Shown here in pieces: positions 1 through 9,759 of a stretch of 12,220 nt of DNA. Made by a program: the position numbers and the translations under genes. The notes under the pieces are model-generated. The model had not been told where the DNA came from and made no database searches. It was given only the letters and a program-made list of their open reading frames with translations. Position 1 is the first letter of the stretch. Each line of letters starts with the position of its first letter. Source of the DNA: a virus (taxonomy: Duplodnaviria > Heunggongvirae > Uroviricota > Caudoviricetes); IMG/VR virus record IMGVR_UViG_2534681937_000031; one strand, 5' to 3'.

Positions 1-1119
1 TCAAATAACCAACTTAACCCATTCCTGACCTCGAGTATCGTTATAGCGATCGGTGGTTGCCTGGACTTTATGTCCTAGTAATGTTTTTGTATCGATACCC
101 TGTGCACGGTACAGCCGTTCTGATAGAGAGCGTTGTTCATGAAATGTTGGCGGAGTTTTTCCTGCTGGTGGAATTACCCCAGCCAGATCCCGTGCTTTGG
201 CAAAGTAGTCGCTCAGGTTGTCTTTACTCATCGGCTTCGGTTGTTTCTGGTGCCGACTATGGATTAGATATGGACTTAATATTCTGTCTCGGCACCCATC
301 AATAACTTCTTTTAACGTTATCCCAATGGCATCACAGCGTAGTGTAAGCGGTAACGCCAGACGCATTCCGGTTTTTCCCTGGGTGATATGCAAGTGTTCG
401 TTCCACACATCTGAAAAACGCATGTGGCAAATGTCATCACGGCGCTGACCAGTAACAATCGCAAGAAGCATTGCGTTACGGATAAAGTGTTTTTCAGGCG
501 TTGCATTGTAAATTTTTTGCCAGTCTTCCATGGTGAGCCTGGCTCTGGTTACTTTAGGGATCGGTTTACGGGTAGCCTCCGGAGGATTCCATCCAGGAGG
601 AACTTCCCCTGCATGCTGTGCTTCTTTATAAATATCAACCCATAATCCACGATTTACTCTCGCTGTACTGACCATGTCTTTATCCAGCCACTCATCCAGT
701 ATTAATGCAAAGTCTCTTACTTCCAGTTCTTTCAATGGGTGGTTTCCCAGACGGGAAACCAGGTATGCAGCCATTCGAGTTTTTTCTTTGTGAGTTGTAG
801 CTGCAATATCTCCATTTTTCAGTCGCGTGTCCTGTATTTTCAGATATCGATCAACCCATGCCTTTAATCTGATACCCCGACGTTTTGTTGCTGACGGACT
901 TTCATCAATTTTGCGCATGAAATATTCAGCTTCTGCTGCAGCTATTCGCTGATTGGCTGTGGAAGCGATTTTTTCTGCCTTACCTTTGTCTGTTCCGAGT
1001 CCGTGAAATTTTCCAGTCACAGGATTTTTATACTGGTAGTAAACTCTGCCAGTTCTGCGATCAAACTTTTCGTAAAGACCGGCTACGTCAGTGCTGTTTT
1101 TTCGTGGCCTCGGTGACAT
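1..1119 (-). CDS. int: lambda-family tyrosine integrase (site-specific recombinase)
   Basis: 372-aa ORF; colinear similarity to phage lambda Int as recalled, including C-terminal catalytic region (AIVTGQRRDDICHMRFSDV, PPTFHEQRSLSERLY, GHK...DRY). Stop codon TGA is window bases 1-3, so the attachment site lies outside the window. AAGGAG SD about 10 nt upstream of ATG at 1119-1117. Confidence 0.93.
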   Translation of the reverse strand: MSPRPRKNSTDVAGLYEKFDRRTGRVYYQYKNPVTGKFHGLGTDKGKAEKIASTANQRIAAAEAEYFMRKIDESPSATKRRGIRLKAWVDRYLKIQDTRLKNGDIAATTHKEKTRMAAYLVSRLGNHPLKELEVRDFALILDEWLDKDMVSTARVNRGLWVDIYKEAQHAGEVPPGWNPPEATRKPIPKVTRARLTMEDWQKIYNATPEKHFIRNAMLLAIVTGQRRDDICHMRFSDVWNEHLHITQGKTGMRLALPLTLRCDAIGITLKEVIDGCRDRILSPYLIHSRHQKQPKPMSKDNLSDYFAKARDLAGVIPPAGKTPPTFHEQRSLSERLYRAQGIDTKTLLGHKVQATTDRYNDTRGQEWVKLVI

Positions 1120-1357
1120 GAGTTAAAATCTCCTTCAGTGCATCATCATCGCCAGTATGAATTTCCGGCGCAATTCCCGTTTCACCAGGCCCAACAAATA
1201 CTGCTCGGCGATCTATCAGCCAACGCCCACGAATTTTTTGTGGTCTTGGAACGATGTATCCTAGTTTTCCGTATTTCACCAGGGTAGTGTTTGTTATTGG
1301 GAGACTGAACCGTTTTGGTTTCCACTCGTCGAGCGTTATCAGGTACTGTTCGCTCAT
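1088..1357 (-). CDS. xis: excisionase (Xis-like DNA-binding protein)
   Basis: Small ORF immediately upstream of int, overlapping its start by 32 nt (typical xis-int arrangement). N-terminus YLITLDEW...RFSLP...YIVPRP resembles lambda Xis YLTLQEW...RPRSLE...IFPPP. ATG at 1357 has GGAG 8 nt upstream; the track start at 1366 is GTG. Confidence 0.7.
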   Translation of the reverse strand: MSEQYLITLDEWKPKRFSLPITNTTLVKYGKLGYIVPRPQKIRGRWLIDRRAVFVGPGETGIAPEIHTGDDDALKEILTHVTEATKKQH

Positions 1358-1418: not shown

Positions 1419-1856
1419 TTAAAAATCAGCCTGACTCGGGATCAGTTTTTGCCAGATAACTGAAACGTATTTTGCCTGGTAACGGGCGTCATCAAGTGCA
1501 TTATGGCGCTCACCTTCGAATGGAATAGCCGTTCTGGCATCGAAGTCTATGGCTTTCCCCAGCTCAACGATTGTGCGTACATCGCGATCGTTGTAGTAAC
1601 GCCACGGGCAGGGGATCCCCTGCCGTTCGTATGAACGGCGCAAAATCGTGTTGTCGAAGTTGGCTCCATTTCCCCAGACCTGAACAAAAAATTCACCGGA
1701 GTTTTCGTCGATAAATTCCCGCAATTGTAACAGTGCATCATCTAACGGGATTTCATCGGTCATAATGGCAGATTGCGCTTCGCGTGATTGCTTAAGCCAC
1801 CATTTAATGGTGTCCCTCGCCGTGTGCTTTCGTGTTGTGTGCCTGCTTTTTACCAC
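1419..1856 (-). CDS. DnaQ-like DEDDh 3'-5' exonuclease domain, apparently 5'-truncated (Exo II and Exo III motifs only)
   Basis: Translation contains Exo II-like WGNGANFDNTIL and Exo III-like HNALDDARYQAKY, but no Exo I (D-x-E) motif in the ORF or in any frame of the 240 bp upstream. Neither candidate start (GTG 1856, ATG 1763) has a convincing SD. Probably a gene remnant. Confidence 0.5.
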   Translation of the reverse strand: MVKSRHTTRKHTARDTIKWWLKQSREAQSAIMTDEIPLDDALLQLREFIDENSGEFFVQVWGNGANFDNTILRRSYERQGIPCPWRYYNDRDVRTIVELGKAIDFDARTAIPFEGERHNALDDARYQAKYVSVIWQKLIPSQADF

Positions 1857-1940: not shown

Positions 1941-2456
1941 GTGATCGCTGAATTAACGGCAGCAATGACGGCTATTCGTGAAACCGCCCAGATTGCAAAA
2001 CTAATGAACGAGGCAAAAACTCAAGCTGAAGTAAATGCGGCTATTGGTGAACTGAACTCAAAGCTTGCATCTATTCAGCGCGAATGCGTGTCTCTCGTTG
2101 AGCTGGTGGGCACTTATCAAGAAATAAATGCTTCTCTCAAAGCTAAAATTGCAGAATTTGAAAACTTTGAGGCTCAGACGGAAGGTTATATCCTTAGCCA
2201 ACTTGAGTCGGGAACTTTTGTGTACTCGAAGGAGGTAACCGTGAACGGCGGCAGCATAATCATGCATCTTTGTCCAAAATGTTTTGGACAAAAGATAGTA
2301 TCGATACTTCAGCCATTCCCGGTTAGAGAATATGAATTTTTTCATAAAAGCAGGTGCCTGTACTGTGAAAATCAGTTTCTTATGAATAAAAATCCGGATT
2401 ACGTATCACCTCCATCTATTGAAGAGTTGGCCAGAAAACTGAACGGCAATCTGTAG
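1941..2456 (+). CDS. hypothetical protein, N-terminal coiled-coil plus C-terminal C4 zinc ribbon (CPKC...x20...CLYC); candidate moron/accessory gene
   Basis: Open frame 1788-2456; the upstream part overlaps the exonuclease ORF, so the likely start is GTG 1941 (AAGAG 10 nt upstream) or ATG 1965. About 171 aa. Visibly AT-rich relative to the replication region. Oriented opposite to the int-xis and early-left genes. No family recognised. Confidence 0.6.
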   Translation: MIAELTAAMTAIRETAQIAKLMNEAKTQAEVNAAIGELNSKLASIQRECVSLVELVGTYQEINASLKAKIAEFENFEAQTEGYILSQLESGTFVYSKEVTVNGGSIIMHLCPKCFGQKIVSILQPFPVREYEFFHKSRCLYCENQFLMNKNPDYVSPPSIEELARKLNGNL

Positions 2457-2570: not shown

Positions 2571-2801
2571 TTAGTCAGAGTTTCTTGCTAACCAGCGACG
2601 CGCGCCAGATTCGGTTTTAAACGTTTTGCTTTTGGTATACGTCATCGCGGTGAACGTGCCGTCCTGGTTGGGAAACACGCCGCACACCAGAGATTCGTTG
2701 TTGCCAAGATCAAGAGTATCCATGCTGACCTCATATCCCCTTAACGCCGGGGTAGCGGAACAAAAACCTGCTGCATAGTTAAAGTTGAACCCTGCCGTCA
2801 T
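2571..2801 (-). CDS. small hypothetical protein, first gene downstream of the leftward early promoter
   Basis: 76-aa ORF with GAGG about 9 nt upstream of ATG at 2801-2799. Positioned like the small early-left genes of Rac-type prophages, but no family confidently recognised. Confidence 0.5.
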   Translation of the reverse strand: MTAGFNFNYAAGFCSATPALRGYEVSMDTLDLGNNESLVCGVFPNQDGTFTAMTYTKSKTFKTESGARRWLARNSD

Positions 2802-2901
2802 GTTCTTACGCCTCGGGCTGGCTACTTAATCCCTGACCACTGCCGGGTAACTCTAGGTATTGCCCTGTATTGTGTGGGACGGGATGGGTTGGTATGGGAA
2901 A

Positions 2902-2967
2902 ACTATAGGAAATGCCTAATTGCTTGTCAATAGGCTACGCCTAATGATTTGGGTGCGACCTAATAGG
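2902..2967 (-). promoter_or_regulatory. leftward early promoter (PL-like) with operator array OL
   Basis: Minus-strand -35 TTGACA (plus 2930-2925), 17-bp spacer, -10 TATAGT (plus 2907-2902). Palindromic operator-like sites TAGGAAATGCCTAA (2906-2919) and TAGGCTACGCCTAA (2931-2944), plus a partial CCTAATAGG (2959-2967), at about 25-bp spacing. Same half-site family as the racR-ydaS intergenic sites. Confidence 0.45.
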
Positions 2968-3038
2968 TGATGGTTTGTGGGAGAGGTAGTAGGAGTTAAC
3001 TAACGGGAACTAGGAATTTCCCGTCGGACCATATAAGT

Positions 3039-3515
3039 TTAAGTTCCTGTCTTGGTGATGTTCTGGCTTTTCCGTTTTGATTCTTGATTTTTCAGATAGT
3101 TAGCTACCTTCATTTCCATTGCGGCAATGTAGGCACGAACGTCATGATCAACCCAACTAGGCTCCGTAGCATTTCCAGATAAGAGGAAAGCCACAATTGC
3201 TCTTTTTTCATCAGAGGCGGCTTGATAAAGGCTGTTTATGTCTAAAAGTTCACTTTTTGTATCTGAAGTGGATGGGGTTGGTATGGGGTATTCGTTAAGC
3301 CCCCAATGCTCTGGACCAACCACATCAGAAAAGAAACGCCATAGTTCTGGAAGTTTGTCTTTACTTATCGAACCTTTCTTAATCCAGTCATGGATTGATG
3401 GTGGTTGGACTTTGAAATGACGTGCGATTTCCGCCTTTGATTTGACGGCTCCTGATGCAATTTTTTTGTTAATGGCCTGCTCTATCGCTCGGCCTAAGTC
3501 TTTACCACTAAGCAT
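3039..3515 (-). CDS. racR: prophage repressor, RacR-like HTH protein
   Basis: 158-aa ORF with N-terminal HTH (AEIARHFKVQPPSIHDWIKKGSIS); divergent from a Cro-like gene across an operator-rich gap; AGGAG 8 nt upstream of ATG at 3515. Length and context match E. coli Rac prophage RacR as recalled. Confidence 0.8.
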   Translation of the reverse strand: MLSGKDLGRAIEQAINKKIASGAVKSKAEIARHFKVQPPSIHDWIKKGSISKDKLPELWRFFSDVVGPEHWGLNEYPIPTPSTSDTKSELLDINSLYQAASDEKRAIVAFLLSGNATEPSWVDHDVRAYIAAMEMKVANYLKNQESKRKSQNITKTGT

Positions 3516-3543
3516 TGCTTAATAGTCTCCTATGCGCATCGCA

Positions 3544-3612
3544 TTAGGCAATGCCTACTCTCGAAGCGTTAGGCATAGCCTATTGACAATTGCATTAGGC
3601 TAAGCCTAATAT
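3544..3612 (+). promoter_or_regulatory. rightward early promoter (PR-like) with three operators (OR)
   Basis: Three palindromes at about 26-bp centre spacing: TTAGGCAATGCCTA (3544-3557), TAGGCATAGCCTA (3570-3582), TTAGGCTAAGCCTAA (3595-3609). -35 TTGACA 3583-3588, 18-bp spacer, -10 TAATAT 3607-3612. The third operator overlaps the -10. Confidence 0.55.
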
Positions 3613-3639
3613 TATTGTGTGTTTTTTGGAGTTCATTCG

Positions 3640-3963
3640 ATGAAAAAAGATAACTATTCATTCAAACGAGCTTGTGCTGTTGTCGGTGGGCAATCAGCAA
3701 TGGCTAGGCTTTTAGGTGTATCTCCTCCAAGCGTAAATCAATGGATCAAAGGTGTACGTCAGTTGCCTGCTGAGAGATGTCCTGCGATTGAACGAGCAAC
3801 AAAAGGTGGTGTCCTGTGTGAAGAACTTCGTCCTGATGTTGATTGGACATACTTACGACGCTCGTCATGTTATTCGCAGAATATGTCGATGAAGCAACCA
3901 AATGACGAAAACGATCATACCCGAAGCATCAAGAGGCAAATGATTCATGAAAATCAAACATGA
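3640..3963 (+). CDS. ydaS: Cro-like HTH regulator, YdaS-like
   Basis: ATG 3640 with GGAG 8 nt upstream. The ORF-track start at 3619 (GTG) lies at the predicted transcription start and is rejected. HTH motif QSAMARLLGVSPPSVNQWIKG. Sits immediately rightward of the repressor, as in the Rac racR-ydaS-ydaT arrangement. Confidence 0.75.
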   Translation: MKKDNYSFKRACAVVGGQSAMARLLGVSPPSVNQWIKGVRQLPAERCPAIERATKGGVLCEELRPDVDWTYLRRSSCYSQNMSMKQPNDENDHTRSIKRQMIHENQT

Positions 3964-4372
3964 GCACATCCGCATGGCGATGAATGCCTGGGCATATCCT
4001 GATGGTGAGAAAGTTCCTGCAGCTGAAATAGCCCGGACTTATTTCGAACTGGGGATGACGTTCCCGGAACTGTACGACGACAGCCATCCGGAAGCCCTGG
4101 CTCGTAATACCCAGAAAATTTTCCGTTGGCTGGATAAAGACACCCCTGATGCTGTTGAAAAAATGCAGGCTCTGTTACCGGCGATCGAAAAGGCAATGCC
4201 GCCTCTGCTGGTGGCCCGTATGCGCAGTCACAGCTCTGAATATTACCGTGAGATCGTCGAACGGAGGGATCGGCTGGTGAAAGATGTGGATGATTTTGTC
4301 GCAGCGGCGATCGCCTGGGGCACCCTGACTAACAGTGGGGGTCAGCCTGGTAATGCTGTTGTCGTGCATTGA
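3947..4372 (+). CDS. ydaT: YdaT-like protein (partner of YdaS in Rac-type immunity regions)
   Basis: 141-aa ORF overlapping the ydaS 3' end by 17 nt; AAGAGG 10 nt upstream of ATG 3947. Length and position match Rac YdaT (140 aa) as recalled. Confidence 0.75.
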   Translation: MKIKHEHIRMAMNAWAYPDGEKVPAAEIARTYFELGMTFPELYDDSHPEALARNTQKIFRWLDKDTPDAVEKMQALLPAIEKAMPPLLVARMRSHSSEYYREIVERRDRLVKDVDDFVAAAIAWGTLTNSGGQPGNAVVVH

Positions 4373-9264: not shown

Positions 9265-9507
9265 ATTCATTCCGTATGGGAATTCCCATATCGGGCAAAA
9301 CGGTTTGCTGTAAAGCGAGAGTTAAGTAGAATTGCTGCGGGTGCTTGAGGCTGTCTGCCTCGGGCATGCCACCGTAAGGCAGACAGAGAAAAGCCCCAGT
9401 TAACATTACGCGTCCTGCAAGACGCTTAACATTAATCTGAGGCCCAATCTATGCTTCACAAACGTAGGTTAGCCTCTTACGCGCCGAAAGGCAAGGAGAA
9501 GCAGGTT
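9265..9507. other. hok leader/regulatory region (expected site of mRNA fold-back elements and any Sok-like antisense RNA)
   Basis: Contains a 22-bp near-palindrome CCGTATGGGAATTCCCATATCGG (9272-9294) and the hairpin CTGTCTGCC-N18-GGCAGACAG (9351-9386). An in-frame upstream ATG at 9451 with GAGG SD precedes hok. Antisense RNA not located. Confidence 0.35.
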
Positions 9508-9663
9508 ATGAAGCAGCAAAAGGCGATGTTAATCGCCCTGATCGTCATCTGTTTAACCGTCATAGTGACGGCACTGGTAACGAGGAAAGACCTCTGCGAG
9601 GTACGAATCCGAACCGGCCAGACGGAGGTCGCTGTCTTCACAGCTTACGAACCTGAGGAGTAA
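9508..9663 (+). CDS. hokD: Hok/Gef-family type I toxin (HokD/RelF-like, 51 aa)
   Basis: Translation MKQQKAMLIALIVICLTVIVTALVTRKDLCEVRIRTGQTEVAVFTAYEPEE matches the Hok family and, as recalled, E. coli HokD. AAGGAG 9 nt upstream of ATG. Confidence 0.9.
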   Translation: MKQQKAMLIALIVICLTVIVTALVTRKDLCEVRIRTGQTEVAVFTAYEPEE

Positions 9664-9731
9664 GAGACCAGGCGGGGGAGAAATCCCTCGCCACCGCTGA
9701 TGTGTCAGGCATCCTCAACGCACCCGCACTT

Positions 9732-9759
9732 AACCCGCTTCGGCGGGTTTTGTTTTTTC
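9732..9759 (+). terminator. rho-independent terminator (AACCCGC-TTCG-GCGGGTT followed by TTTGTTTTTTCT)
   Basis: 7-bp GC-rich stem, tetraloop and U-rich tract about 70 nt after the hok stop. Confidence 0.75.

Follow-up and report, generated by a model that had tools for sequence, protein, structure and literature searches.

The closest described relative of the element analysed here, the operator arrays that flank the repressor gene racR in a 12,220-nucleotide stretch of viral DNA (IMG/VR record IMGVR_UViG_2534681937_000031; this whole stretch is hereafter called the window), is the immunity region of Rac, a prophage in Escherichia coli K-12. The 123-bp intergenic region of K-12 contains three GCCTAA/TTAGGC palindromes, gives three RacR-DNA complexes in electrophoretic mobility shift assays and is enriched for RacR in chromatin immunoprecipitation followed by quantitative PCR (PMC5700373), and another report counts 'four inverted repeats' in it (PMC11014345). 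DNase I footprinting of K-12 RacR yielded the consensus (T/A)TAGGC-n3-GCCTA(T/A) and the operators O1-O3, among which O1 is the first region to be protected, at the lowest RacR concentration, and O3 covers the ATG of racR, whose main promoter is leaderless (PMC9638921). The ydaS gene of K-12 has a single start site by primer extension, with TTGACA as its -35 and TAATAT as its -10, and mutation of the -10 abolishes the activity of this promoter, PydaST (PMC9638921). Unrepressed, PydaST gives ~25,000 Miller units, an output that YdaS cuts ~16-fold (PMC11879457). RacR itself was found to be an octamer in solution by size-exclusion chromatography, and its loss is coupled to excision of the prophage (PMC11014345).

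A second described system is that of prophage CP-933P of E. coli O157:H7, which consists of the repressor PaaR2, YdaS, YdaT and the promoters PR933P, PRM933P and PL933P, the last with the operators OL1-3, and in which the leftward promoter (PL) is repressed by both PaaR2 and YdaS (PMC8630535). For Rac, the groups studying RacR map operators solely between racR and ydaS; in the literature that we searched no RacR sites or promoter downstream of racR are described, and a search made without most subscription journals, EcoCyc and RegulonDB returned neither a description of a Rac left operator and promoter (OL/PL) nor a genome-wide RacR binding map. Those groups call the regulon of RacR 'not yet characterized in detail', and one paper counts the 'racR-proximal operons ydaFG' within the uncharacterised regulon (PMC11014345).

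The window encodes a repressor that passes the NCBIfam RacR equivalog NF049929 with 246.8 bits (the cut-off being 200 bits) and is 92% identical to K-12 RacR. As in the K-12 Rac type, its gene sits divergent from a ydaS-family gene, the product of which matches the Pfam families YdaS_toxin (3.8e-30) and P22_Cro (1e-8) and is 85% identical to K-12 YdaS. Operators built on one consensus lie on both sides of this racR gene, and we consider it very probable that the two arrays are the operator-promoter regions of a lambda-type immunity switch that uses RacR as its repressor. The right array is already known, being the orthologue of the K-12 Rac operators and PydaST. The left array looks like a genuine OL/PL, judging by a cassette conserved in distant relatives, a mosaic boundary at the PL -10 and published K-12 transcriptomes; it is an expected addition to a known type of lambdoid switch, and one that is undescribed in the literature searched.

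The window contains four exact copies of TAGGC-N3-GCCTA where 0.01 are expected, all of them next to racR (2931-2943, 3545-3557, 3570-3582 and 3596-3608), and none of 200 shuffled sequences reached four copies. A copy with one mismatch lies at 2906-2918 and one with two mismatches at 3509-3521, over the racR start codon; at up to two mismatches, nothing beyond these six sites was found in the whole window. The operators start 25 bp apart on the left, and 25 and 26 bp apart on the right. The two sides mirror each other over more than single sites: the 20-mer TTAGGC-N3-GCCTATTGACA occurs without mismatch once on each strand and nowhere else (0.00 expected), and the arms 2924-2949 and 3564-3589 are 88% complementary. 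The top two sigma-70 promoter matches of the window, at 11/12 for PL and 10/12 for the rightward promoter (PR), are both located inside the operator arrays and face outward, and the remaining nine promoter-like matches each score 9/12 (Table 1).

A preliminary description made from the sequence had proposed palindrome arrays on both flanks of racR with a period of about 25-26 bp, each overlapping an outward-facing near-consensus sigma-70 promoter, and the motif counts, the spacing of the solid sites and the promoter scores bear this out. Its site counts hold in part. The three palindromes that it gave for the right side are the three exact copies, and the array has a fourth, degenerate member over the racR start codon that it did not list; on the left, its two clear sites are solid, and the site that it called partial is weak (9/12) and stands out of register, 19 bp from its neighbour. 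The lambda-like OL/PL and OR/PR layout that it read from these features (OR being the right operator) is supported by the sequence features, their conservation and the orthology with K-12, and the search for the motif in related prophages that it suggested was run and found the same cassette near RacR-type repressors in distant hosts, as described below.

Table 1. Operators, promoters and genes of the racR region and its left and right flanks (window coordinates; operator and promoter scores out of 12)
Feature	Coordinates	Strand	Remarks
int	1-1119	-	annotated record
xis	1088-1357	-	annotated record
exonuclease pseudogene	1419-1820	-	annotated record
hypothetical gene	1941-2456	+	no significant Pfam match
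DUF1391 gene	2571-2723	-	annotated record
early-left transcript leader	2724..2897	-	without annotation; common to different-repressor prophages
predicted PL, 11/12	2902..2930	-	TTGACA 2930-2925, 17-bp spacer, TATAGT 2907-2902; best sigma-70 match of the window
left operator in PL spacer, TTAGGCATTTCCTAT, 10/12	2905..2919	-	overlaps -10
left operator abutting PL -35, TTAGGCGTAGCCTAT, 11/12	2930..2944	-	
weak third left site, TTAGGTCGCACCCAA, 9/12	2949..2963 (2963-2949)	-	19 bp from its neighbour
racR	3039-3515	-	158-aa prophage repressor; annotated racR in NZ_CP022689
fourth, degenerate right operator, CTAAGCATTGCTTAA, 9/12	3508..3522	+	spans racR start codon (CAT 3513-3515)
right operator distal to PR, TTAGGCAATGCCTAC, 11/12	3544..3558	+	
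right operator abutting PR -35, TTAGGCATAGCCTAT, 11/12	3569..3583	+	final T doubles as first T of TTGACA
right operator nearest PR, TTAGGCTAAGCCTAA, 12/12	3595..3609	+	fills PR spacer, overlaps -10
PR (PydaST orthologue), 10/12	3583..3612	+	TTGACA 3583-3588, 18-bp spacer, TAATAT 3607-3612
ydaS-like, Cro-type gene	3640-3963	+	107 aa; divergent from racR
ydaT	3947-4372	+	annotated record

Between racR and ydaS, the right array and K-12 Rac can be aligned base for base, the K-12 substitutions being confined to the N3 spacers and linkers, save for one G-to-C change in the site distal to PR, so that all other half-site positions and the promoter hexamers are identical. The (T/A)TAGGC-n3-GCCTA(T/A) repeats thus stand at the K-12 positions, and the array, placed between the divergent repressor and Cro-type genes, overlaps both PR, with the PydaST hexamers TTGACA and TAATAT at their 18-bp spacing, and the predicted repressor promoter. 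In the alignment the site nearest PR is the orthologue of K-12 O1 and the degenerate site over the racR start codon equals K-12 O3 (PMC9638921), while the site abutting the PR -35 is kept in K-12 and in every relative. The site distal to PR probably overlaps the -35 of a leaderless racR promoter, the orthologue of K-12 PracR3, which we placed by means of the K-12 -10 GAGAAT (PMC9638921) and the K-12 alignment, the corresponding hexamer of the window being GAGACT at 3529-3524. PR transcribes the ydaS-like gene, ydaT and the replication genes. Since this element is orthologous to the experimentally characterised one of K-12, the right half of the locus is not new.

Right arrays of the E. coli Rac type have four sites, centred 0, 36, 61 and 87 bp upstream of the racR ATG, whereas most of the distant relatives compared (loci L007-L016) have three, at 0, ~35 and ~60 bp. 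The E. coli Rac-type loci therefore appear, from this comparison of spacings, to carry an extra 25-bp operator unit with the site distal to PR, which would account for their four sites. The position equivalent to the degenerate site scores 10-11/12 in distant relatives.

On the left, a second array of the same operators overlaps a predicted outward promoter beyond the repressor gene, an arrangement seen at the level of sequence and of conservation. The predicted PL, which would start near A2895, is directed at the DUF1391 gene, the exonuclease remnant, xis and int. The same arrangement flanks racR in K-12 Rac (locus L001). An equivalent of the weak third left site scores 10/12 in E. ruysiae and in phage vB_EcoS-683R6; it is found in close E. 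coli-type relatives only and could not be recognised in the Mixta, Proteus, Klebsiella phage KpF5 and Achromobacter loci, and its function is uncertain. Distant relatives have three right and two left operators.

To follow the left array beyond the window, we assembled a set of loci from genomes, phages and viral contigs, each with a gene for a RacR relative, and oriented the repressor gene plus. On the downstream side of the repressor gene, and in its own orientation, these relatives have a cassette in which TTAGGC-N3-GCCTA is followed directly by TTGACA-N5-TTAGGC-N3-xCCTAx, the second palindrome lying over the -10 (e.g. TAATAT or TATAGT). It is present in E. coli Rac-type loci, K-12 included (RacR identity 91-100%), in Mixta (64%), Proteus mirabilis (61%), a Pseudomonadota metagenome-assembled genome (58%) and Klebsiella phage KpF5 (57%), as well as in two Achromobacter genomes (77-78%, counted over the first 77 residues only) and in 12 of 13 Achromobacter-type viral contigs, the thirteenth of which extends only ~1 kb past the repressor gene. 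Altogether the cassette was found in 162 of 168 loci, a count of loci that are not independent, many contigs standing twice in the set. The distance from the repressor stop codon to the cassette ranges from 77 to 2770 bp, while the spacing inside the cassette is constantly 25 bp. The 38 distinct PL sequences vary in the N3 spacers and linkers, whereas their four half-sites and -35 show no variation or next to none, and TTGACA together with a -10 of the TAnnnT type is kept in every lineage. Half-sites that stay fixed, although the bases between them and their distance from the repressor gene vary freely, bear the mark of purifying selection. A YdaS-family gene divergent from the repressor gene was likewise kept in the six distant relatives tested.

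Several observations on these relatives may be recorded beside the main result. The Achromobacter (L011) and Aeromonas (L014) repressors consist of a RacR-type N-terminal DNA-binding domain of ~75 aa fused to a Peptidase_S24 domain (LexA/CI-like), and the other Achromobacter-type repressors (among L011, L013, L014 and L099-L111) have a similar length of 342-371 aa. The Achromobacter prophages carry the same TTAGGC-N3-GCCTAA operators at OR and OL; no TTAGGC-N3-GCCTAA sites were seen in the Aeromonas locus. One DNA-binding domain, its operator sequence and a Cro-type partner travel together across repressors with differing C-terminal domains, S24 included. Inspection by eye showed a G+C-rich hairpin with a T run after it just upstream of the operator pair in KpF5 and in one Achromobacter locus. 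A K-12-type Rac immunity region with the same operators is also found on a 5.2-kb contig binned as 'Candidatus Nanosynbacter' (L005, JARKOR010000130.1), whose RacR is 92% identical to that of the window; this contig is probably mis-binned or a contaminant.

The left array also coincides with a mosaic boundary. Only 2800-2896 of the window is matched by ~2,100 further E. coli genomes. In two of these (L017 and L018) the matching segment has a DUF1391 gene on one side and, on the other, the gene for a repressor other than RacR, which is of the LexA family in one genome and a hypothetical protein of 139 aa in the second. The leader is ~90% identical to these two up to ~2897 and then diverges abruptly, and beyond that point each different-repressor prophage has palindromes and a leftward -35 of its own. 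Because homology ends at ~2897, the immunity-specific module starts exactly at the PL -10, which is the classic lambdoid arrangement: operators and promoters are specific to the immunity, and the early-left flank is common to prophages of different immunity.

The first 40 nt of the leader are C-rich (17 C, 4 G) and resemble a Rho loading site. We considered whether the conserved leader is a structured RNA, such as a put-like antiterminator, and rejected the idea, its folding being weaker than that of shuffled sequences (z = +1.7; 196 of 200 shuffled leaders folded at least equally well). No relevant annotation was found on phage sequences similar to the leader. A 13-nt direct repeat, GGGTTGGTATGGG, is present at 2886-2898, at the predicted PL start, and at 3275-3287, in the part of racR that encodes the linker; K-12 lacks an exact counterpart, and we therefore regarded the repeat as of doubtful significance and dropped it as an element. 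Just past the racR stop codon lies an 8-bp hairpin (3002-3025) without a U tract, which differs from K-12 by a compensatory change of G-C to A-U and may, going by its sequence, be a stabiliser of the 3' end or a non-canonical racR terminator.

Taken together, these features suggest the following mode of action. Each side has one and the same unit of ~50 bp, in which a RacR site (TTAGGC-N3-GCCTA) is fused to TTGACA and a second site fills the spacer and overlaps the -10. With operators on either side of the -35 and over the spacer and -10, two bound dimers would exclude RNA polymerase; RacR dimers on both sites would in this way block PR, and with it the ydaS-like (cro) gene, ydaT (cII-like) and the replication genes, and likewise PL, the putative driver of the DUF1391 gene and then xis and int in this truncated prophage and of ydaG, ydaF, kilR, racC and recET in K-12. 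At high RacR levels, the distal and the degenerate right sites, which cover the -35 and the start point of the racR promoter, would mediate negative autoregulation. Upon loss of RacR, both outward promoters would be expected to fire, and a PL that reads through the DUF1391 gene toward xis and int fits the coupling of RacR loss to excision in K-12. YdaS may bind these operators as well; the literature searched yielded no study that maps YdaS directly on Rac DNA. Cooperativity, and OL-OR looping by the RacR octamer, may also play a part. More specifically, it is conceivable, and we put it forward tentatively, that the octamer, instead of just sitting on four neighbouring repeats, bridges the left pair and the right sites in a loop of ~0.64-0.69 kb round racR, and that PL, in place of racR read-through, is the RacR-controlled source of kilR, recET and xis-int transcription. 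If that is so, the C-rich first 40 nt of the PL leader would be the relevant Rho loading site, and the coupling of toxicity with excision on RacR depletion would be explained.

Published expression data for K-12 bear on the existence of PL. Under a foreign C protein that reduces racR transcription, racR alone of all Rac genes falls, whereas ydaF, ydaG, ydaE and racC rise ~40-fold and kilR, ydaC and ralA more than 70-fold in the same RNA sequencing data (PMC6765115). CRISPR interference against racR gives the same pattern and in addition induces xisR and intR (bioRxiv 10.64898/2026.09.06.749655). As the downstream genes rise while racR mRNA falls, read-through from racR is excluded as their source, and a separate leftward promoter repressed by RacR can account for the pattern.

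Nevertheless, a number of points weigh against a RacR-controlled OL/PL switch. Both the activity of PL and its repression by RacR are predictions. The proximal left site is imperfect (10/12, with the half-site TCCTAT), and the third left site is weak and spaced 19 bp rather than 25 bp from its neighbour. Another group ascribes the silencing of kil to Rho, which would terminate transcripts that start at the racR promoter (PMC4150792), a model that implies a different source for leftward transcription. On the right side, YdaS of K-12 is reported not to repress racR (PMC9638921), so the analogy with Cro is incomplete, and YdaT too footprints over PydaST (PMC11879457), so occupancy of this promoter is not exclusive to RacR.

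The alternative that survives best builds on the termination model: the left sites would be auxiliary RacR sites, serving as anchors for cooperativity or looping with the right array or as a roadblock to racR read-through, there would be no functional PL, and leftward genes would be transcribed from the racR promoter by read-through that Rho restricts (the 'trac' model). In keeping with it are a terminator within or close to racR that depends on Rho and shields cells from kil (PMC4150792), the octameric state of RacR in solution (PMC11014345) and the likeness of the C-rich start of the leader to a Rho loading site. We nonetheless judge it unlikely, since auxiliary sites would leave unexplained why TTGACA and the TAnnnT -10 are kept in every lineage despite variable linkers, why PL is the best promoter match in the window, and why leftward genes go up while racR mRNA goes down (PMC6765115); moreover, prophages with different repressors bear a promoter and palindromes of their own at the same place, and the equivalent PL of CP-933P is active and repressed (PMC8630535).

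The imperfect proximal site and the evident paralogy of the two cassettes could also be read as the mark of a decaying, non-functional duplicate of the right cassette left over from recombination. This is highly improbable given the 38 distinct sequences, which range from Enterobacterales to Achromobacter and whose half-sites are invariant while the bases between the sites and the distance to the repressor vary. It is barely credible that the palindromes work at the RNA level, as hairpins or terminators, and not as DNA sites for a protein. Although a consensus scan marks 3594-3610 as terminator-like, the stems are just 5-7 bp with loops of 3 nt, the sites are placed across the transcription start points or upstream of them, the half-sites are fixed with no compensatory changes among the variants, and protein binding to the orthologous K-12 sites has been demonstrated directly (PMC5700373, PMC9638921).

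The prophage that carries the switch is of the lambdoid kind. Positions 2800-3700 of the window match E. coli CDC#03-98 at 100% identity and an O157:H7 chromosome at 99.9%, and according to the annotated record the window is a lambdoid prophage of O157:H7-type E. coli inserted beside potC. Downstream of ydaT come genes for DnaT-like and P replication proteins, and the right end carries a Q antiterminator gene. The early-left arm (1419-2456) is truncated, with nothing between the DUF1391 gene and xis/int other than the exonuclease pseudogene and the hypothetical plus-strand gene, and PL therefore lies ~1.5 kb from the excision genes. A 76-codon open reading frame at 2571-2801 was considered as an N-terminal extension of DUF1391 and rejected; since its frame is not kept in K-12, the annotated start of the 50-aa protein was retained. 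The sequence ATGATTCATGAAAATCAA at 3940-3957 spans the ydaT start codon (3947) and is identical to the K-12 'YdaT-box', which is footprinted by YdaT; in K-12, YdaT activates a reverse promoter within ydaS, comparable to lambda CII and PRE (PMC11879457). A scan of the whole window against Rfam gave no match in 2700-3700; far to the right, it returned the sok antitoxin RNA (114.9 bits; 9339-9513) adjoining an annotated hokD, and an isrK-like match (9672-9753) that, at 27.2 bits, falls below the gathering score of 50.

For RacR biology, a second conserved cassette would offer a direct route by which RacR controls kilR, recET and the excision genes in K-12, and xis and int here, and it allows the RacR octamer and the 'trac' model of Rho-dependent silencing to be read differently. 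It is a concrete target for work on the RacR regulon, on the octamer and on the silencing of kil by Rho. The broader view of how lambdoid switches work is left unaltered.

Compared with lambda, the locus has divergent repressor and cro-type genes, operators ~24-26 bp apart over two outward early promoters that flank the repressor gene, a leaderless repressor mRNA and, going by the K-12 data, an octameric repressor (PMC11014345). It differs from lambda in its operator, which is 15 bp long (6-3-6) rather than 17 bp, and in the number of sites, there being four on the right and two solid ones plus a weak one on the left instead of three per array. The arrays are also closer together (~0.64-0.69 kb as opposed to 2.4 kb), the PL leader showed no recognisable N gene or nut site, and YdaS, as noted above, is reported not to repress racR (PMC9638921). 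Furthermore, RacR of the window has no match in a Pfam scan and hence lacks the LexA-like S24 autocleavage domain, on which RecA-mediated induction depends.

The likeness to CP-933P extends to a Rac-like immunity region with a YdaS-type Cro, a YdaT-type CII and an octameric repressor, PaaR2 (PMC8630535). Its operators are 18-bp palindromes, GTTTAGTAA, of an unrelated consensus, so its immunity differs, and its repressor operon bears a toxin-antitoxin pair as well. With K-12 Rac, finally, the window shares the operator consensus, the four right-hand positions including the one at the racR ATG, and the -35 TTGACA and -10 TAATAT with their 18-bp spacer. The two differ in the distal right site, where GCCTA of the window is a better match than CCCTA of K-12, in the predicted racR -10 (GAGACT as against GAGAAT) and in the prophage that hosts the switch, which in the window is a potC-adjacent lambdoid one with DnaT-like and P genes and a truncated early-left arm.

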